DNA of 64,000 nucleotides from a virus (IMGVR_UViG_3300012953_000012:96001-160000); one strand, 5' to 3'. Positions 4,320 through 60,959 are shown, numbered from the stretch's first letter. The notes: a model not told the origin generated them from the sequence alone. Translations and numbers: made by a program.

Positions 4320-4628
4320 ATGATCATGGCAACCGCAAAGACTCGCAAGACTCGCAAGAAGACCACCAAGAAGGCCGCTCCCGCTGAGATGGCCATCGCC
4401 CCTGACGTTTGGGCTGCGATCCAGCAGTTCCGTCAGCGGAGTGACCACTACGTCGGTGAGATTGGCCGCATGGAGGTTCGCAAGGCTGCATTCGTGTCGG
4501 AGATCGATGCGATGAACAACCAGGCGAACCAGATGCTCCGACAGGAAGGCACGCGGCTGGGAATCCCCGATGGGACTCAGTGGCGGGTCAACCCCGAGGG
4601 GAAGGTGATCCTGGGCGACGAGGGCTGA
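4320..4628 (+). CDS. hypothetical protein, basic N-terminus
   Basis: AGGAG RBS. KTRKTRKKTTKK N-terminus then a helical region. Confidence 0.75.
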   Translation: MIMATAKTRKTRKKTTKKAAPAEMAIAPDVWAAIQQFRQRSDHYVGEIGRMEVRKAAFVSEIDAMNNQANQMLRQEGTRLGIPDGTQWRVNPEGKVILGDEG

Positions 4629-14423: not shown

Positions 14424-14448
14424 GGGCTATCAGCCCCGTGCGGCGAGA
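14424..14448. repeat. 25-bp inverted repeat, left arm
   Basis: GGGCTATCAGCCCCGTGCGGCGAGA is the exact reverse complement of 14786-14810. Confidence 0.9.
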
Positions 14449-14609
14449 ACGTCCTTGCGGAGTTCGGCCAGATCCTTGCCCGCCTGGCTCGCAGCCTTGC
14501 GGAGTCGGGTGCCGGGGGCTCCAGCCTTCCCGCCGTCGCATTTTTCGGCGTCGGCACGGGCGGCCTGAAGGTCAGCGATGATGCGGTCGATCTTGTCTGT
14601 CATGCTCAT
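14430..14609 (-). CDS. histone H1-like protein (Hc1 family)
   Basis: ADAEKCDGG..APGTRLRKA..ELRKDV matches the Hc1/bacterial H1-like pattern. AAGGA RBS. The frame is also open up to 14852. Confidence 0.8.
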   Translation of the reverse strand: MSMTDKIDRIIADLQAARADAEKCDGGKAGAPGTRLRKAASQAGKDLAELRKDVLAARG

Positions 14610-14785
14610 GGTGTTTTTCCTTGTAACGGGGGTTGTGTAAAGCGGGGGGTCAACACGAATGACCTCCCATTGGTACTCTTTGGTGGCTTCATCGAGGGCG
14701 ACCATCCCGGCCTCCCACTCACGACCGGCCCTGAGCGCGGTCTCCAATCCAACATACTCGTCGGGCAACTCCCCCGATTTGTGCT

Positions 14786-14810
14786 CTCGCCGCACGGGGC
14801 TGATAGCCCG
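14786..14810. repeat. 25-bp inverted repeat, right arm
   Basis: TCTCGCCGCACGGGGCTGATAGCCC. Confidence 0.9.
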
Positions 14811-14848
14811 CGTGGTGGACCACGCGACTTTGTAGTGGTCGGCTCGGA

Positions 14849-15220
14849 TCATGGCTCCTTGTCCTCTCCACGTTTGCCGAGGCGAGTCACTTGCTCGTCG
14901 TCGGGGTGGGGGTCAAGCAGATGATTGAGCCGGTATTGGTGGCAGATGTCGTTGGCGATGCTCCGCAGGTGGCGGACGATCAACTCGACCTCGTGGCTGT
15001 ACTCGGGCTGGCGCAGGGTCAACTCGGAGGCGGGGGTGCCCTTCCGCAACTCCTCCATGTCCACCGTGACGGCGTTCCAGCCGTAGACCTCTTCGCCCCA
15101 CACCACTTCAAAGTAGGCGACCGGCGTAGTGTCCAGGTCAGGCACACCAGGCTTGCCTTCCAAGGCCAGCCGGATGCGGTGCTTGTCGAGGTCAATGACC
15201 TTGTCGTTGTCGTCAGCCAT
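14849..15220 (-). CDS. hypothetical protein
   Basis: Phage-typical N-terminus DKVIDLDKHR. Coupled to the downstream frame. Confidence 0.75.
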   Translation of the reverse strand: MADDNDKVIDLDKHRIRLALEGKPGVPDLDTTPVAYFEVVWGEEVYGWNAVTVDMEELRKGTPASELTLRQPEYSHEVELIVRHLRSIANDICHQYRLNHLLDPHPDDEQVTRLGKRGEDKEP

Positions 15221-47215: not shown

Positions 47216-48196
47216 ATGCGCCCTGACCCTACGAACGTCGCCAACCGCTTCGCCAAGAAGTGGAAGAAACTGCCCCCTGGATGGACCGACGAGTCCGTCA
47301 AGAAGTTTTGGAAGACGCTCGGCAAGGGCACTCCCGAGCACAAGGTGTGGAACTGCATCGAGAAGATGGACGGACACATCCCCAACACGGGAGCCTTCTG
47401 CGGCGGCCTGGCCGACTGGCAGATGCCTGGGTGGCGAGAGAAAAACAAGAAGGAGTCCCCCGAGGCTCGCTCCGATGCGAAGTCCTACTGGAAGGGCAAG
47501 ATCAAGAAGAAGATGAAGGGGAAGAAGGCATCGGAGAAGTACGACTGGGAGGTCAGCGGCTACCCTATCGAGGAAGATCGTGGGGCGGTCGCCAAGTTCC
47601 GAGGAACAGAGCAGGAGTTTGTTCGGTGGTACAACTCCGAAAGGTTCGATGACCTGTGGGACGACATCCAGATTGAAACCTACGACATCCGCTCCAAGAG
47701 GAGGCTTGACGACTGGGCTGTGGAAAGAGGCCGTCTGGAAAAACTGGCTTCGGCTCAACGGGTGGCGCTCCGGTACGCAGCCCGGCACTCTCCTCCCTCG
47801 ATCATGGGATCAGCCAACATGCTGAAGCGCCAGGGTCTGACCCCGGTGGACGTGTGGTTCGGCGAAGTGAAGCCCCATCGACGCCCCATGCTGGAGTTGG
47901 GTGACATGGTGCAGACCCGAGGCGGTGATCTCATGTACTTCGCTGGCGTAGCCTCCGATGGTGGGGCCATCCTCGGCAAGAACGAGCGCGAAGCCGAGCG
48001 CCTTCACAAGCAGGTGATCGAGGACCGCAAGCACCACTCGTCACGCGCCGCGTTTGGCAGCCCTCTCATGCTCCAGCCTGACTACGGCCACGGTGATGCA
48101 GCGGTGCCGGACGGTCGCGTGCCTCCATGCCAGCAGGGATACCACCCATGCCAGCACGGACTCCCCTGCGAATGTGGCGGCGGGTGCGGCAAGTAG
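47216..48196 (+). CDS. modular hypothetical protein (possible polyprotein)
   Basis: Small domains joined by KKAS and KLASAQRVALRY linkers. Cys/His-rich tail. Confidence 0.8.
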   Translation: MRPDPTNVANRFAKKWKKLPPGWTDESVKKFWKTLGKGTPEHKVWNCIEKMDGHIPNTGAFCGGLADWQMPGWREKNKKESPEARSDAKSYWKGKIKKKMKGKKASEKYDWEVSGYPIEEDRGAVAKFRGTEQEFVRWYNSERFDDLWDDIQIETYDIRSKRRLDDWAVERGRLEKLASAQRVALRYAARHSPPSIMGSANMLKRQGLTPVDVWFGEVKPHRRPMLELGDMVQTRGGDLMYFAGVASDGGAILGKNEREAERLHKQVIEDRKHHSSRAAFGSPLMLQPDYGHGDAAVPDGRVPPCQQGYHPCQHGLPCECGGGCGK

Positions 48197-54136: not shown

Positions 54137-54425
54137 CCTGGGCCTCCTGCTTAGAGAGCACTCTACCCCCGTTGCAAACCCTCACAGCAGGTCGTCCCTG
54201 GTAGGGGGGACAAGCATCGTCGTACCGCTTGACGCTGACACGCTTTCCGCTCGGTGCCATCCATACGGCTCCGGTGCTGGTAGACCCATGCGGCATGGCG
54301 GTTCCAACGGCGCGACGGACGGCGTCGGAGTCGGCTGCGCTGGTGAGGATGACGAGGTGGTCGTTGCCCCTGCGAAGGGATTCGTGGGTGAGGCGACAAG
54401 CGCACTCGGTTGCGATTCTGTTCAT
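54081..54425 (-). CDS. hypothetical protein
   Basis: ATGA overlap with the 54422 gene stop. Confidence 0.6.
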   Translation of the reverse strand: MNRIATECACRLTHESLRRGNDHLVILTSAADSDAVRRAVGTAMPHGSTSTGAVWMAPSGKRVSVKRYDDACPPYQGRPAVRVCNGGRVLSKQEAQDVGRWYEGKVIPFVGAER

Positions 54426-55444
54426 GTTGTCCGCTCCTTCGGTCCCGCTGCGAGGGTCCATCCGAACCTCCGATCTGCGATTCCGTTGTAGGGGGACACG
54501 CTGATGCAAACCTCGGCGTGTCCGGTGATGGACTCCATGGCATCGCTGCACATGGAGTGGATGGCTGTGGTGATGGGGTTGAACCCATCGGAAAGGTCGT
54601 CCGCCCCCCAGAGGGTGACGGTCCACATGGTGATCGTGGCCGCATCGTCGTGTGGCTTGCCTGCCACAGCGTTGATGTTGTGCGCCCGCAGGTAGTCGAT
54701 GACGCCCTTCTGGACGACTCCTGTGAGGCTCACGCGGCCTTGTGTGGTCGAGAGAGCCTTGTAGGAGTACAACCGCCGTTGGTCGTCCGAGAGGTCCGCC
54801 AGGGTGGCCGTAGGGATCTGTGTGGCCTTGCGAAGCATGGGGAGAGACCCTGCCTCGTAGCCTTTCACGCCTGTCGGGATTGCAGGCAGCCCCTTCTTCG
54901 CGATCTCGATGGCGTACTCCACGTCCATGCCTTCCTTGGTTGCGTCGGCTTCGACCCGGTCCATGATCTGGGCACAAGTGTCGGTGTGAGCGGAGACCTG
55001 GAGCCGCATTTCTTCGGCGACCTCCATGGAGGCGATCTCCAACTGCATCCCCAGGACCACAGGGTCCAGTGTGTCGGTCAGTACAGGGACCGCCGGGTGC
55101 CCTTCTTCAGGCAACAGCCCGGAACGCAACTCGGGAACGTCCCCGTCCAGGGACGCCCGTTCCGCGATGGCTGCCTCCATGAGAGGGTTCAGCATGGTCA
55201 TGCCGTTGTCATGCGTCAGGGTGAGCGGGGCACCGTGCGCCTCCCGTGCTGCCTTCTCCATGCGGGTGGATGCGGCGACGAGAGCGTCCCCGTGGCCTGC
55301 CTGGAGAGCGAGTTCAGCCAACTTGGTCAGGGCCTCCTCGGGTGCCAGCCGACCTTCCTGGAGAGCCAGCAAGACCGGTGCGGCCCCTGGTGTATCTTCC
55401 AGGAGGCGTTGAACCTGAGCAACGATGTCGAGCACGTCCCTCAC
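54422..55444 (-). CDS. hypothetical protein
   Basis: GTGA overlap with the 55441 gene. Confidence 0.8.
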   Translation of the reverse strand: MRDVLDIVAQVQRLLEDTPGAAPVLLALQEGRLAPEEALTKLAELALQAGHGDALVAASTRMEKAAREAHGAPLTLTHDNGMTMLNPLMEAAIAERASLDGDVPELRSGLLPEEGHPAVPVLTDTLDPVVLGMQLEIASMEVAEEMRLQVSAHTDTCAQIMDRVEADATKEGMDVEYAIEIAKKGLPAIPTGVKGYEAGSLPMLRKATQIPTATLADLSDDQRRLYSYKALSTTQGRVSLTGVVQKGVIDYLRAHNINAVAGKPHDDAATITMWTVTLWGADDLSDGFNPITTAIHSMCSDAMESITGHAEVCISVSPYNGIADRRFGWTLAAGPKERTT

Positions 55445-55623
55445 CCTTTCACCTGCGCCTGTGCCGCTGGGGGACGTGGGGGTGCGAACACCACGCGGAT
55501 CGTGCCACACTTGTTGTTGCGTCTGACGCGGGTTTCGTACTGGTCTGGGACCGTTACACCACGCGCTCTGAGTGCTTGCCTTAGCAGACTGTCGATCTCG
55601 TCCTGTTCAAGTACGAGTTCCAT
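55441..55623 (-). CDS. small hypothetical protein
   Basis: AGGAG RBS and coupled to the next gene. Confidence 0.7.
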   Translation of the reverse strand: MELVLEQDEIDSLLRQALRARGVTVPDQYETRVRRNNKCGTIRVVFAPPRPPAAQAQVKG

Positions 55624-55664: not shown

Positions 55665-56588
55665 CTATTTCTTCTTACTTGACCCGAATGTGATCTTACC
55701 CCCCACACCGATGACCCGTTCTTTTGGGGCTTCAGGTGCGGCCCACGGGTCAGGTTCCGGTGGGGGAGGTGGTCCGCCTCCGACCATGACCCCACCGGAA
55801 GGCATGTTCGTGTTGAAGGAGGGTCGTGGAGGCGTGGGAGCCTTGCGCTCGGGCCTGGTCGGGTGGGCGGCAGGCTTCTCAGGGATCATGTCGGCGGCGC
55901 GGGCACGCTTGATGGCGATGTCTCGTGCGTGCTTGCAGGGAACCTCTCGGGACGCACAAGTGCATTCCCACTGACCGTCATGGTGAAGGGTGACCTCATA
56001 GATGACCCGCTTGCCCTTCGCGTCTTTTGAGTCTCCCTGGACACGCCAACGCCCGATGATCTCGTCGGGGGTTTCCTCTGGGACATCAGGGATTTCCTGG
56101 GACCCATCCACATGAGTAGGCTGCGGAGATGGATCTGGGGTCACTGTTGTGGGGTCTACGGGGTCATTGTCGGGGATCGGGTCCTCAGGTGGTTCCGGCT
56201 CTGGTTCCGGCTCCTTCTGAAAGCCCGAAGGGGCCACCATGCCCATCATCTCGGCTGCTGCTCGTCCAACGTCGGCGTCCGTGACGGGCTCCCAGTCCCC
56301 ACGCTGGTCGCTGATCTCAATCGCCAACGCCTGTCGGAGCATGTCTGGGAAGTCGGGGAGGCCGAGGACCGTCGCCGTGTTCTCCGGGGCGAAGTCCGGG
56401 TTGTGAAGAAGGCGGTCCTCCTGGGTCAGGATCCGCTTGTTCCACTTGGTGCCTGCGCCCTTGCTGTTGCGACAGCCCACGTTCATGCACACGCCGCAAA
56501 ACATCTGCTTGAACTGCTCAGGTGCGAGCAACTTGCGGTGCTCACCGTCGTAGCAGCCGTCGAACAAGTCTGGGAGGGATTTACTCAT
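55665..56588 (-). CDS. SWIM zinc-finger protein
   Basis: YEVTL..WECTCASREVPCKHA SWIM motif, Pro-rich linkers, N-terminal CxxC. ATGA overlap with the SET gene. Confidence 0.8.
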   Translation of the reverse strand: MSKSLPDLFDGCYDGEHRKLLAPEQFKQMFCGVCMNVGCRNSKGAGTKWNKRILTQEDRLLHNPDFAPENTATVLGLPDFPDMLRQALAIEISDQRGDWEPVTDADVGRAAAEMMGMVAPSGFQKEPEPEPEPPEDPIPDNDPVDPTTVTPDPSPQPTHVDGSQEIPDVPEETPDEIIGRWRVQGDSKDAKGKRVIYEVTLHHDGQWECTCASREVPCKHARDIAIKRARAADMIPEKPAAHPTRPERKAPTPPRPSFNTNMPSGGVMVGGGPPPPPEPDPWAAPEAPKERVIGVGGKITFGSSKKK

Positions 56589-57157
56589 GACTCCTTCTTC
56601 TTGCGGAACCAGATCTGGTCGGGGCTGGTGTAGGTGAGAGTCAACTCCGTGCCGGGGGTGACGTCCTTCGTCGCGAAGAAATCCATGTAGCGTCGGTCGG
56701 TGTCCGGTTCGATGTAGGGTTGGCACCTCATGTTGGCCTCTTTCCTGGGGGCGTGGTTGTAGAGCATCCCGTTGCCCAGCACCAACGCTCGGATCTCGTC
56801 CTTGCGCCACGGATGGACCATGTGCTTGAGTAGCACCCCGCCCCGCCCCACATAGGGATGCAGCATGGTGCCTTGCAGCGTTCGCTCCAGAGGCATGTCA
56901 GGGGTGTCCAGGATGTAGGCGGCACAGCGTTCGACAAGCATCCCTTCCTGGAGAGGTGAGCGGCTGAAGACCCCCAACCCCTTCCCTGGAATGTGTTGGA
57001 TGTACAAGCCTCCGCCGTAGTGGACCAGGCGGGCCTCTCGGGCCTCTCGGAGCGGGGATCCACAAAACTCGCAAAGAGGGTTGTGGTCGGCACCCCTTCT
57101 CTCAACGATCTCGTTGACGACCCCGCAGTGGGCGCATGGGATCTGGCTGACGTCCAT
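56585..57157 (-). CDS. SET-domain protein-lysine methyltransferase with N-terminal zinc ribbon
   Basis: GKGLGVFS, GMLYNH, FFATKDVTPGTELTLTY SET motifs. CAHC..CEFC at the N-terminus. AGGAG RBS before 57157. Confidence 0.9.
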   Translation of the reverse strand: MDVSQIPCAHCGVVNEIVERRGADHNPLCEFCGSPLREAREARLVHYGGGLYIQHIPGKGLGVFSRSPLQEGMLVERCAAYILDTPDMPLERTLQGTMLHPYVGRGGVLLKHMVHPWRKDEIRALVLGNGMLYNHAPRKEANMRCQPYIEPDTDRRYMDFFATKDVTPGTELTLTYTSPDQIWFRKKKES

Positions 57158-57165
57158 CTCTACTC

Positions 57166-57663
57166 CTACGCTACGTTGAAGCCGCCACCCCGCACTACAA
57201 CGACATGGCGGCCTTCCCGCCATGCAAACACTACCCGCTGGAAGACCTCGACAGCCTCCGTAGGAACGCCGTCAGACAGGGGCGGCTCGTAGCACTCAGG
57301 CGGCCCGTGCTTGAGTCTACGGCCCTTTCCCTTACTCCCCCCAGGTCGGCAGAGCGGTTCGTCCCAGGTCAGGCACGCCTTCCCGATCTTGCACACGCCT
57401 TCATCGGAGGCCACGCGCCTGGCGCTGGCTCGGGGGTCTCGCCCCAACTCCCGCACCAGAGGTAGAAAACGCCCGTGTAGGGCGTGTGATAGGGACTCGG
57501 CGGTGATCTCCTTGACCCCCGCTTCCCAGGTGGTCCCCCGGAGCGATTCAAGTACCCCCCAGTGGTCCGCGTCCTCGGGGACCTCCTCCACCAGGAGCAG
57601 CACCTTTTCGGCCTCCCGTCCGGGAAGGGGGGAGGGGTCGGTGAGGTCAAGGATTCTCACCAC
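57166..57663 (-). CDS. hypothetical protein
   Basis: In the coupled operon. Cys residues in the C-terminal half. Confidence 0.75.
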   Translation of the reverse strand: MVRILDLTDPSPLPGREAEKVLLLVEEVPEDADHWGVLESLRGTTWEAGVKEITAESLSHALHGRFLPLVRELGRDPRASARRVASDEGVCKIGKACLTWDEPLCRPGGSKGKGRRLKHGPPECYEPPLSDGVPTEAVEVFQRVVFAWREGRHVVVVRGGGFNVA

Positions 57664-58252
57664 TCCCCCCTACTTGTTTGAAGAAGCGACTGGCTCCCCC
57701 GGTGTCTCCGAACCGATGGCCGTCTCCGTCCATGGGGAACATGCCGGTCTTCCCGGCTTCGCGCTTTGCGGATCGGCTCGACCCCGCGCTGTGCATCCCT
57801 CCAGCAAGCGAATCAGCATCCAATCGAGCAACGGGGCAATCCGGCTCGCAGATCCAGTTGGCGACAGTCTCCTTGCCTTCTGCGTCCCCATGCTCCACTT
57901 TGTTTTGAAGTCCTTCTGCTGTTCCGTAGACTCCGTGTTTCCCGAAGGCTCCTGTGCTTCCCGGCTTCATGCCCCCAGTAATAGCCTTCACCCTCTTGAC
58001 CCCACCACACCGACAACCTTCAAGGTGCTGGAGGATCACGTTGGCGGGCCATCTTCCTTTCGAGGTCGTAGCGACATAGGCGGGTCGCTCCTTTCGCCCA
58101 AACCCGCTCCAAACCTCCAGTCGGTTGATGGGTATCCGATCCGACCCGACCCGAGAGGCGTCGATGTTGATCCCCCCCGTCCCATGACGGAGGGTGTTGG
58201 CTGCGACGGTCCCTTCGGACAAGGGCTTCCGTAGGACGTGGATCATCCTCAT
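57647..58252 (-). CDS. stand-alone middle (putative specificity) segment of beta-class DNA methyltransferase, copy B
   Basis: RKPLSEGTVAANTL.HGTGG.NID, GRWPANV, WIC..DCPV, GASRFF. No DPPY or FxGxG motif. Confidence 0.85.
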   Translation of the reverse strand: MRMIHVLRKPLSEGTVAANTLRHGTGGINIDASRVGSDRIPINRLEVWSGFGRKERPAYVATTSKGRWPANVILQHLEGCRCGGVKRVKAITGGMKPGSTGAFGKHGVYGTAEGLQNKVEHGDAEGKETVANWICEPDCPVARLDADSLAGGMHSAGSSRSAKREAGKTGMFPMDGDGHRFGDTGGASRFFKQVGGSGENP

Positions 58253-58253
58253 T
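58233..58253. repeat. 21-bp direct repeat at start of MTase middle segment B
   Basis: AGGACGTGGATCATCCTCATT is identical to 59508-59528. Confidence 0.85.
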
Positions 58254-58857
58254 GTCGCCCCTTCACCCAGCACGCTCGACAGCGGGCCTCGTACATCCCC
58301 GTCGAGCCGACCTGCACCTGCTCCCCGGAGTCTTGATCAGGCAACCGGAACGAACGAGTGGCAGGCTTGCCACACACCTCGTCCCACTTCCACTGACCCC
58401 CCACGGTTCGTGTTCTTGTGGTCCCGTGTACGCATACGGCAGTCAGTTTGGTCACCTTGTCGGCCACCGCGAGAAGTCGTGCCATCGGCCCGAACGGCTG
58501 ACCATCAGAGTCGAGATCAAGCCCCGCGACGATGACCCGGCGACCTCTGTTTGCTTCTGACTCCAGCACGTCCACGATCTCGTCGTCAAGGAACTGCACC
58601 TCGTCCACTCCGATGACCTTCCCTGTCATGTAGAAGGGCTGTGTTCGGAGAAGGCGTTTGACGTGATCCACGTCCTTGACGGCGACCGCTTCCAGTGTGC
58701 CCCCAACGTGGGTCGCCAGCGAATCCTTGGAGTAGCGGTCGTCAATCGCGGGCTTCATCACAAGGGTGAACTGGTCCGCGATCTGGCACCGACGCAGACG
58801 CCGGATCAACTCCTCTGACTTGCCGCTGTACATGCAGCCTGTGATGGCCTCAAGCAT
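58249..58857 (-). CDS. tdk: thymidine kinase
   Basis: GCMYSGKSEEL P-loop, KPAIDDRY, VIGVDEVQF, GLDLD..PFG, YEARCRAC. Confidence 0.95.
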   Translation of the reverse strand: MLEAITGCMYSGKSEELIRRLRRCQIADQFTLVMKPAIDDRYSKDSLATHVGGTLEAVAVKDVDHVKRLLRTQPFYMTGKVIGVDEVQFLDDEIVDVLESEANRGRRVIVAGLDLDSDGQPFGPMARLLAVADKVTKLTAVCVHGTTRTRTVGGQWKWDEVCGKPATRSFRLPDQDSGEQVQVGSTGMYEARCRACWVKGRQ

Positions 58858-59527
58858 CCTCCTTCCCTCCGATCTGTTTGTAGAAGCGTGAGGCTCCTCC
58901 TGTGTCTCCAAAACCGGGGTCTCCCCGCACCTCATCTGCGGACAATGCCTGACCCAGTCCGTTGCCCCCGCCGTAGATCGTAGAGGTGGTGGAGATGTTG
59001 GCGGTGCGCCCGCCTGTGCTCTTGGTCACACCGCTCTGCTCATCCAATCGTGCGACAGGACAGCCGGATTCACAGATCCAGTTGGCTACCGTCTCCTTGC
59101 CGTCCTTGTCCGTGTGATTGAAGTAGGGGCGGTTCTGCTTCTCGGCAAAGCCGCCGTGCGCTGTAATGGGGGCGGCATGTCGGTGGGGTTTCGTCCCTCC
59201 AGTGATCCCCTTCACCTTCTTGACCCCAGCACGCCTACACCCGTCGAGGTGCTGGAGGACCACGTTCGCGGGCCACCTGCCGAGTTTCTGTGCGTCCGAA
59301 GGCACATAGGACGATCCCGCTGCGTACATGCCAGGGCCGTCACCGATGCCTGTCCTGTCAGCCATCAGGTTGTCCTTCCCTCGACGCACGACGCCTGTGA
59401 CAACGTGCGAGCCGTCACTGGAGATGCGGGATGCGTCGATATTCAACCCGCCCGTGCCGTGCTTCAAGGTGTTCGCGGCCACGGTGCCTTCGGAGAGAGG
59501 CTTACGGAGGACGTGGATCATCCTCAT
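58850..59527 (-). CDS. stand-alone middle (putative specificity) segment of beta-class DNA methyltransferase, copy A
   Basis: Same four conserved blocks as copy B with different intervening loops. ATGA overlap with the catalytic-half gene. Confidence 0.85.
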   Translation of the reverse strand: MRMIHVLRKPLSEGTVAANTLKHGTGGLNIDASRISSDGSHVVTGVVRRGKDNLMADRTGIGDGPGMYAAGSSYVPSDAQKLGRWPANVVLQHLDGCRRAGVKKVKGITGGTKPHRHAAPITAHGGFAEKQNRPYFNHTDKDGKETVANWICESGCPVARLDEQSGVTKSTGGRTANISTTSTIYGGGNGLGQALSADEVRGDPGFGDTGGASRFYKQIGGKEDA

Positions 59528-59528
59528 T
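59508..59528. repeat. 21-bp direct repeat at start of MTase middle segment A
   Basis: Identical to 58233-58253. Confidence 0.85.
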
Positions 59529-60126
59529 CCGGCTTCCTCCCCACACAAACCGGTTCCCACGAAGGTTTCAAAGCGGTTCCCCACCCATCCCAGCGTTGAG
59601 CCTTTTCAACAAGAGGGACGTGGTGCCTCTCCCCGCTCTCTTTCATGAAAGATCCCGGTCCCGCACCAAAACCTTGGCCTCTGTCCAGCGCACCCCTTTT
59701 CCCTTCAGTCTTTTGGGTTTTGTAGCGACCGTGATTCGGGCTTGTGGGATCAGGCCCCCCGTGGGGAACCCCACGCGCCGCCTTGTCCAGAGCCTTGCCG
59801 ATGTTCATGCTCTTGGGGAAGCCTGAGCCGTAGTTCCACGACTCGATCCGAAGGTCGGTGAACCCGGCCTCGGCCATAGCCGCAGCCATCCGATGATAGG
59901 TGCGAGTACCGGAGAACGCCTTGATGACCCCACCGGGTCGGAGCACTCGGTACACTTCGTCCCAGAGGTCGGCTGAGAAGGCGATGCCTGCGCCCTCGGC
60001 ATCCCACGTCTTGCCCATGAACGAGATGTGGTACGGAGGGTCGCAGATGAACGCTCCAACGAAGCCTTCCTCGTATTCACCGAGGACTTCCACACAGTCA
60101 CCGTGTCGTAGAGTCAGCCACTGCAT
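59524..60126 (-). CDS. N-terminal (catalytic, DPPY) part of beta-class N6A/N4C DNA methyltransferase
   Basis: HGDC, DPPY, RVLRPGG, YGSGFPKS, WGTALKPSWEP, then a stop at GRKPE. No SAM-binding FxGxG motif. Confidence 0.9.
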   Translation of the reverse strand: MQWLTLRHGDCVEVLGEYEEGFVGAFICDPPYHISFMGKTWDAEGAGIAFSADLWDEVYRVLRPGGVIKAFSGTRTYHRMAAAMAEAGFTDLRIESWNYGSGFPKSMNIGKALDKAARGVPHGGPDPTSPNHGRYKTQKTEGKRGALDRGQGFGAGPGSFMKESGERHHVPLVEKAQRWDGWGTALKPSWEPVCVGRKPE

Positions 60127-60134
60127 CGTGCCCC

Positions 60135-60959
60135 CTACAGTCCGAACAGGTCGTCGAGAGAAATGGTCTCGGGCTCGGCTTCGCGTGCCTCGGTGATCTC
60201 AGTGAGGTCGGAAGACACTTCGGCAGCGTTCCATCCAGCATCACGGGTGTTCCAGTACCGGACCCGGCCCTCGGCGATGGTCAGGTACTCCTTCTCCCGT
60301 TCGATGCCGATGAAGTCGTGCCCTGTCTGGACACAGGCGATGCCCGTAGTCCCGCTGCCCATGAACGGGTCCACCACAGGACCTACGTCCTTCGGCACAT
60401 CGTGGAGCAGCCGTGCCATGACGGCGTAGGGCTTCACGGTGGGGTGGACGTTGCGGCGCTTCTTCACCCGGTTCAGGCCGATGTCCTGACCTCCAGGTGC
60501 CTCGACATCCTCGCCTTCCTCGGTCGATGCGATGGCCCCCTGTGCGCCCCCGGACATGCCGAAGACCTTGAGGGGTAGGTGGTCCAGTCCGGCCTCACGT
60601 TCCTTGCGGGCGGCTTTGGCGACGTAGTGCATCTGGTCGGTCGTGCTGTCGGCCACCATGATGCAGTCGCGGACCTCAAAGCCAGTGTCCTCAGCGAAGC
60701 AGGCTCCGGTGTGTCCCGTGGGTTCAGCGGGGTCGTTGGCGAGCATCAGGTGTCCGCCCGGCTTCAAAGCCCGATGGGCCTCGGTGATCTCGTCGAGGGA
60801 GTCCAGAGAAGACTCCAGCACGATGCCGTGAACGCTCTCGTCCTCGTGCTGGGACCAGTCGTAGCCTTTGGTGGCGTAGACGAACACACCCTCGACCCCC
60901 TGGGGGTCACCGGGCGTGATCATGTCACGCAGGTAGTCAATCAGTTCGGGGTTCATCAC
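60135..60959 (-). CDS. SAM-binding part of beta-class DNA methyltransferase with degenerate catalytic motif
   Basis: YVAKA..ERE, HPTVKP, DPFMGSGTT, FIGIERE. Retains RALKPGG and GFEVRD but has no DPPY. Confidence 0.9.
   Translation of the reverse strand: MMNPELIDYLRDMITPGDPQGVEGVFVYATKGYDWSQHEDESVHGIVLESSLDSLDEITEAHRALKPGGHLMLANDPAEPTGHTGACFAEDTGFEVRDCIMVADSTTDQMHYVAKAARKEREAGLDHLPLKVFGMSGGAQGAIASTEEGEDVEAPGGQDIGLNRVKKRRNVHPTVKPYAVMARLLHDVPKDVGPVVDPFMGSGTTGIACVQTGHDFIGIEREKEYLTIAEGRVRYWNTRDAGWNAAEVSSDLTEITEAREAEPETISLDDLFGL

Follow-up and report, generated by a model that had tools for sequence, protein, structure and literature searches.

The window analysed here, a stretch of 64,000 nucleotides corresponding to bases 96001-160000 of the 205,564-bp IMG/VR virus record IMGVR_UViG_3300012953_000012, carries on its minus strand a gene (56585-57157) for a 190-residue protein in which an N-terminal zinc ribbon precedes a SET domain; the protein is referred to as ZnR-SET. 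Judged from its sequence and its modelled fold, ZnR-SET is very probably an active SET-type protein-lysine methyltransferase. It appears to define a new, small, phage-restricted subfamily of a known enzyme class, found here in phage and metagenome contigs only. The reading that we favour, with somewhat better than an even chance of being right, is that of a clade-specific accessory gene whose product methylates, in dependence on S-adenosylmethionine (SAM), a variable protein that would most likely belong to the host.

The gene starts with an ATG at 57157, and an AGGAG Shine-Dalgarno sequence, directly past the stop codon of the upstream gene, is located 6 nt before it. The Pfam SET profile (PF00856; cut-off 22.4 bits) is matched with 33.1-33.5 bits (E 7.9e-8 for 33.1 bits), and all of the 11 family members compared with this profile (11/11) match it. 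Among PDB sequences, the best match is the viral enzyme vSET (E 1.3e-4), followed by Set7 from S. pombe. The catalytic domain comprises residues 48-186 (56600-57016, minus strand), with a variable 35-residue insert at about residues 84-118. In the alignment to vSET, Asn134-His135 falls on the NH motif of vSET and Tyr176 on its catalytic Tyr105, and the aromatic C-terminal segment is aligned as well.

An AlphaFold2 (AF2) model built from 11 homologues had a predicted local distance difference test (pLDDT) score of 75.7. When the model was compared with the PDB by Foldseek, the minimal SET enzymes PFL0690c (4rz0), vSET (3kma), and Set7 (5h6z) were ranked first, all with a probability of 1.0 and with target-normalised template-modelling (TM) scores of 0.69-0.76. 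Altogether 275 PDB matches were obtained at E<=1e-3, and the top 50 listed are all SET-domain proteins. In 21 orthologues, the residues conserved at 95% or more are Cys8, Cys11, Cys29, Cys32, Gly60-Leu-Gly62, Asn134-His135, Glu171-Leu172, Tyr176, and Trp183-Phe184. They comprise the GxG and NH motifs, which bind SAM, and the ELxxxY motif (residues 171-176), which holds the catalytic tyrosine. The profile match, the SET fold, and the conserved cysteine and catalytic motifs bear out the clear SET domain and the N-terminal zinc ribbon of the original prediction; they also support its view of the protein as a phage-encoded lysine methyltransferase, and the phage origin of the DNA, assumed at that stage, agrees with its place in a virus record.

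The zinc ribbon occupies residues 1-40 (57038-57157, minus strand) and has the arrangement C8-x2-C11-x17-C29-x2-C32. No specific Pfam zinc-ribbon family was matched above threshold; GATA, Lar, and generic ribbons appeared below threshold only. A GATA-type finger was considered from the same CX2CX17CX2C spacing and was rejected, the matches being sub-threshold (E 0.02-0.1), and the element is called a generic zinc ribbon. It would probably serve in targeting, as an anchor on nucleic acid or on a partner, or else stabilise the small domain. The insert shows low pLDDT at residues 100-107 and has the lowest mean identity within the family (34%), followed by the zinc ribbon (42%), and the C-terminal half of the SET domain has the highest (58%). 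It should be mentioned that a candidate capsid-targeting tag, K-x-A-S-x-x-R-V-A-x-R-Y, is not present on ZnR-SET; its sole copy in the window is at 47741-47776 on the plus strand.

The pairwise ratio of nonsynonymous to synonymous substitution rates (dN/dS) of ZnR-SET is 0.12-0.33, which indicates that the gene is maintained by purifying selection, and its reading frame is intact at every locus. These features bear on the idea that the protein is a decaying or non-catalytic remnant, or else a SAM-binding adaptor that serves as a SAM sink or as a helper of a split DNA methyltransferase. Such a role might be suggested by the high rate of evolution of SET, the fastest in its gene block, by its position among modules of SAM-dependent DNA methylases, and by a weak match of the zinc ribbon of two family members to the restriction-alleviation protein Lar (E 0.0076). 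However, the Lar matches are below any threshold and are typical of zinc-ribbon cross-matches, the catalytic and SAM-binding motifs are all conserved in the 21 orthologues, and we know of no SET domain that acts on DNA. With selection and an intact frame added to these points, the remnant or adaptor is considered to be very improbable.

The family is small. Ten homologues of ZnR-SET were found among 5.8 billion clustered proteins. A second set, of 1.84 billion proteins, gave nine cluster representatives at E<=1e-30 and 1127 representatives of short SET relatives at E<=1e-3. Megablast and tblastn searches of 50,697 GenBank phage records gave no match for the region, for SET, or for the Hc1-like gene of the window described below. 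In 185,579 prokaryote genomes, one for each species, there was no full-length relative, and the best matches were bare SET domains of at most 36% identity. Among the control genomes, a SET match was observed in Methanosarcina only. In a library of viral structures (BFVD), the best match, A0A6J5L8Y2, comes from an uncultured tailed phage and is labelled "SET domain containing protein". More than 20 loci with full-length relatives (numbered with the prefix L; whole records have the prefix G) were collected from metagenome and viral contigs. The record that contains the window has a CheckV completeness of 46% and a GC content of 62%. Its large window proteins are mostly without a match in Pfam or PHROGs, the exception being an NAD-dependent ligase. 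The contig is tailed-phage-like and includes bacterial-type genes, namely the NAD ligase and split N6/N4 DNA methylases. A bacterial host is presumed, so that a histone is not expected there.

ZnR-SET lies in a conserved block of genes, all on the minus strand in the window. Directly upstream of it is up165 (57166-57663), which encodes a Cys-rich protein of 165 residues with no assigned function and 66-91% identity among loci. Further upstream, in the same gene string, are split DNA-methyltransferase modules and a thymidine kinase (57647-60959), recognised as Pfam TK and N6_N4_Mtase fragments. Downstream are the gene of a SWIM-like zinc-finger protein of 307 residues (55665-56588) and d362 (54422-55510), a conserved gene that closes the block and shows 45-71% identity in at least 15 loci. 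The order DNA-methylase modules, up165, SET, SWIM, d362 is found in nearly all of the more than 20 loci, and the stop codon of up165 is 10-30 nt before SET in at least 17 of them. In one record, G001, the SET gene sits outside the block. As a separate observation, the thymidine kinase has a relative of 42% identity in the viral record G080 (497,513 bp, 100% complete), from which both SET and Hc1 are absent.

The coupling of SET to the SWIM-like gene, which the original prediction had noticed, is confirmed by an overlap of the SET stop codon TGA with the SWIM start codon (ATGA) in the window, and near-abutting starts occur at L078, L079, and L096. In other loci, DNA-methylase modules or the thymidine kinase are present between the two genes. 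Insertion is concentrated at the junctions around SET, a hot spot where copies of methylase specificity modules and of the thymidine kinase vary in number and order among phages (loci L076-L098). Because the insertions between SET and SWIM are variable, the ATGA coupling seems to be one state of a variable junction. One contig, Ga0080013_1000001 (552,571 bp), contains two complete, diverged blocks (L077 and L093) at 77-98 kb and 353-373 kb, in the order methyltransferase modules, up165, SET, methyltransferase, thymidine kinase, SWIM, d362. This might be caused either by a large internal duplication in a huge phage or by co-assembly of two related phages.

The label "SWIM-like" is a fair one, though the Pfam SWIM profile (PF04434) gives 15.0 bits, below its cut-off of 19.6. 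Cys209, Cys211, Cys218, and His220 of the CxC...CxH motif are invariant in 21 sequences. In the AF2 model of this protein, only the SWIM region, composed of three strands and a helix, is confident (pLDDT 85-89), and a Foldseek search with the model gave no significant match. The C-terminus (55665-55850, minus strand), past a Pro-rich linker, has the conserved motif NT..P.GG(V/I)MVGG ... DPWA.P..K.RVI.VGGK(V/I)TFGS.KKK. This motif could be a docking peptide for the replisome or another partner. Profile searches found no family or PDB match for up165, and the ESM Atlas gave nothing usable; d362 had no family, PDB, or ESM Atlas match. None of the four proteins SET, up165, SWIM, and d362 was matched in PHROGs, NCBIfam, or PADLOC.

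A sister clade was found by a search with up165 (34-38% identity; records of 72-619 kb; loci L198-L204). Its gene order is a DnaG-type primase zinc finger, up165, DNA polymerase A (PolA), a gene of 160-195 residues, SWIM, and d362, as in L201:5207-12087, and the C-terminal motif of the SWIM protein is kept there. The sister-clade block is without SET, and six of the seven records have no SET anywhere. A hidden SET domain in the 195-residue gene preceding SWIM was considered and rejected (hhalign probability 0.3%). This means that up165, SWIM, and d362 are older and replication-linked, and that SET is a later insertion retained by one clade. The arrangement suggests that up165, the SWIM protein, and d362 are replication accessory factors.

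This neighbourhood raises the question of whether ZnR-SET modifies a protein of the block or the replisome (up165, SWIM, d362, or a replication protein), or itself, and so regulates replication. The fixed position of SET directly after up165, the translational coupling to SWIM in the window with the near-abutting starts elsewhere, and the place of the sister-clade block next to primase and PolA genes are consistent with such a role. The C-termini of SET (RKKKES) and of the SWIM protein (GSSKKK) are rich in lysine, and automethylation has a precedent in the chlamydial SET protein NUE (PMC2904774). On the other hand, up165, SWIM, and d362 all occur without SET in the sister clade. There is no invariant lysine in up165 or d362, and the SWIM protein has a single one, which lies within the SWIM motif and is kept in phages that lack SET as well. 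The coupling is not conserved, since methyltransferase and thymidine kinase genes often separate SET from SWIM, and SET evolves much faster than up165, SWIM, and d362. A target within the block or the replisome is therefore regarded as unlikely.

The last point was examined with the 14 loci that hold up165, SWIM, and SET, which give 91 pairs. The mean pairwise identities are 72% for up165, 64% for SWIM, and 50% for SET, and SET is the least conserved of the three in 90 of the 91 pairs. The gap is widest between close relatives. For L082 and L085, the identities are 95% (up165), 91% (SWIM), and 60% (SET), and those between L076 and the window are 91%, 81%, and 52%, respectively. The synonymous divergence (dS) between L082 and L085 is 0.20 for up165, 0.35 for SWIM, and 1.76 for SET, as estimated by the simple NG86 method with saturated values, at a dN/dS of 0.15-0.20 for all three genes. 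Since dS of SET is high at a similar dN/dS, the SET alleles look older than their flanks. In the trees, the SET of L082 groups with those of L092 and L094, whereas its flanks group with L085. This pattern points to recombinational exchange of old alleles or to a local hypervariable regime, and is not like that of simple decay.

The very divergent SET alleles beside nearly identical neighbours, together with the shuffled methylase modules, favour a variable host protein as the target, to which we assign a probability a little short of even. Several points weigh against the favoured reading. Besides the saturation of the dS values, the SET tree agrees at clade level with the flanking trees, which means that the history of the gene was mostly vertical, and the divergence pattern could also come from low constraint combined with recombination. 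The host-side target would be suggested by this pattern as its single line of evidence. Most SET proteins of the family have a basic pI (8-9), and this does not clearly point to a basic substrate. In the genome of the window, PolA and primase are about 85 kb from the block, so that the link to replication is one of neighbourhood.

A more specific form of the host-side reading is that ZnR-SET is an enzyme of host takeover or counter-defence, which would methylate a variable host protein of the nucleoid, of transcription, of translation, or of defence; host nucleoid or translation proteins were also the alternative targets offered in the original prediction. We put this forward tentatively, as a possibility well below even. 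If it holds, the old, exchangeable SET alleles would track differences among hosts in the manner of the neighbouring swappable methylase specificity modules, an expectation to which we attach the same limited confidence.

The original prediction had combined SET with an Hc1-like gene of the same window into a writer/substrate pair. The Hc1-like gene is real. It is located at 14430-14609 on the minus strand, encodes 59 residues, and matches Pfam Hc1 (PF07432) with 24.9 bits, narrowly above the cut-off of 23.5; relatives score up to 35 bits. The phage protein covers only the 57-position N-domain of the Pfam family, and has six lysines and no Lys-rich tail. In the window, the gene is in frame, with no stop codon between, with a conserved upstream open reading frame (ORF; 14610-14852, minus strand), so that together they make a frame of 140 codons. 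The two are split by a stop codon in L053 and by a change of frame in L058 and L059, and in all three loci the 59-residue gene stands alone; the phage of the window and those of L054 and L055 may also produce a 140-residue Hc1 fusion. The presence of Hc1-like genes in jumbo phages has already been noted (PMC12619734).

The pairing would mean that SET methylates the Hc1-like protein of the phage and thereby tunes the compaction of phage or host DNA. The two genes are found together in G000, G065, G002/G003, and G001 of the clade and in the unrelated lineage G089/G091, and Lys23 and Lys38 of the phage Hc1 are invariant. However, the 205-kb record has one copy of each gene, 42 kb apart and in different gene blocks, and the distance is 45-49 kb in the other genomes that have both. 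Each gene also occurs without the other, in near-complete genomes too. SET without Hc1 was observed in G004, G086, G095, and G061 (92% complete; a different SET), and Hc1 without SET in G067 (98% complete), G057 (89%), G058 of the sister clade, G068, and G075-77. In G004 (181 kb), the gene dn218, which abuts Hc1 in the window, is kept, and there is no Hc1-like ORF beside it or elsewhere; Hc1 has been lost at the syntenic site in this SET-positive genome. G052 was left out as a case of Hc1 without SET, since it does not extend over the part that contains SET in G001, its near-identical twin. Viral records selected for SET contain Hc1 in 5 of 49 cases, and in 0 of the 4 with a completeness of 90% or more. 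Further records selected for Hc1, mostly small fragments with one of 162 kb and 89% completeness, contain SET in 0 of 8.

As a neutral control, 45 viral records with a length of 60 kb or more were chosen solely for the presence of a thymidine kinase. Hc1 was present in five and absent from three of the SET-positive records, and present in seven and absent from 30 of the SET-negative ones. The raw Fisher test gives an odds ratio of 7.1 (p=0.022), and the p value becomes 0.06-0.18 when relatives are collapsed. The five records with both genes represent at most three lineages, and each of the two genes tends to be on larger records (median 155 kb, compared with 103-109 kb). The association is not significant when relatives are collapsed, and it is confounded with record size. 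Co-occurrence across related phages was checked and did not hold: neither SET nor Hc1 needs the other.

The chlamydial precedent, cited as established in the original prediction, is contested. Binding and methylation of Hc1 by cpnSET have been reported, as cited in PMC3980110. According to PMC2904774, full-length Hc1 was not a methylation substrate for NUE from C. trachomatis, and the positive result with cpnSET came from truncated fragments. In addition, the phage Hc1 is 93-98% conserved between close relatives, whereas the SET alleles diverge rapidly. With no joint inheritance, a tailless Hc1, and a separation of 42 kb, the writer/substrate pair is not supported and appears improbable. Nothing in the genomic data favours even a facultative enzyme-substrate relation. 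A conserved phage protein of any kind, with Hc1 as the lesser share, would be the target with a probability of somewhat under one in three, and the remaining probability goes to other roles or to no catalytic role.

A Lys-rich protein of the window was also considered. The "4320" protein (4320-4628, plus strand) is a core protein of 102 residues with an N-terminus, MATAKTRKTRKKTTKKAAPA, that resembles a histone tail. This Lys-rich tail is unique to the phage of the window; the orthologues, including that of the SET-positive G003, are acidic or Thr/Pro-rich in this region, and the gene is also present in relatives without SET. As the tail is absent from the orthologues, "4320" was rejected as a conserved SET substrate.

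The window was also scanned for a late-promoter-like motif, CGGTAG-N5-CTAT, with at most one mismatch. Eleven sites were found against one expected, and 10 of the 11 are on the plus strand (examples are 2708, 3385, 11282 on the minus strand, 12632, and 50716). The minus strand has no site from 51 to 62 kb; none precedes the gene string of SET, and none precedes Hc1. A scan of the SET gene string for sigma-70 promoters and terminators gave results at chance level. SET is probably transcribed with early or middle genes, and not from a late promoter.

A possible course of events may be described as follows. The SET gene would have been inserted beside up165 in a replication-linked block, at a place where DNA-methylase modules and the thymidine kinase also shuffle. 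ZnR-SET, made early or in the middle of infection, would transfer the methyl group of SAM to one or more lysines of a protein target. The best guess for this target during takeover is a protein associated with DNA or RNA.

No paper describing a phage SET enzyme came up in the literature searches, and the methylation of protein lysines by bacteriophages has, to our knowledge, hardly been studied. The catalytic residues of ZnR-SET are intact, its place in the genome is fixed, and its alleles are unusually diverse, which makes the family a tractable candidate for asking what the job of a SET enzyme is in a cell free of histones. The tempting reading as a "phage chromatin code" has been removed as unsupported. 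If the takeover reading is true, ZnR-SET would be a first case in which a bacteriophage uses protein-lysine methylation as a weapon.

Among known systems, vSET (A612L of Paramecium bursaria chlorella virus 1; 1n3j, 3kma) is similar to ZnR-SET in being a viral minimal SET protein without the pre-SET and post-SET cysteine clusters. vSET is encoded by a virus of a eukaryotic alga, methylates Lys27 of histone H3, and acts as a dimer. It has 119 residues and no zinc ribbon, whereas ZnR-SET, with 190 residues, has a 40-residue N-terminal ribbon and a 35-residue insert, and is not a bare SET domain of about 120 residues like the vSET-type minimal viral enzymes. The hosts also differ: that of vSET is a eukaryotic alga, and that of the ZnR-SET phage a bacterium without histones. 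The archaeal Go1-SET of Methanosarcina mazei reportedly methylates the chromatin protein MC1-alpha. It is a minimal SET enzyme of a prokaryote, with a small, basic nucleoid protein as its substrate, and differs in being cellular rather than viral and in having no zinc ribbon. For a SET enzyme whose chromatin target is not a histone, Go1-SET is the best precedent.

The chlamydial enzymes cpnSET (C. pneumoniae) and NUE (C. trachomatis) share with the phage the presence of a SET protein and an Hc1-family protein in one genome. Chlamydial Hc1 has about 125 residues and a Lys-rich tail, whereas the phage protein has 59 residues and the N-domain only, and no co-inheritance with SET was found here. 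NUE differs further: it is an effector secreted by the type III route, and its substrates are host histones (PMC2904774). Also related are the SET proteins of uncultured Caudovirales, such as A0A6J5L8Y2, and the many metagenomic SET proteins of 120-145 residues, which likewise are phage-encoded minimal SET domains. These are bare SET proteins; the combination of zinc ribbon and SET domain, at a fixed place after up165, is confined to the small clade described here.

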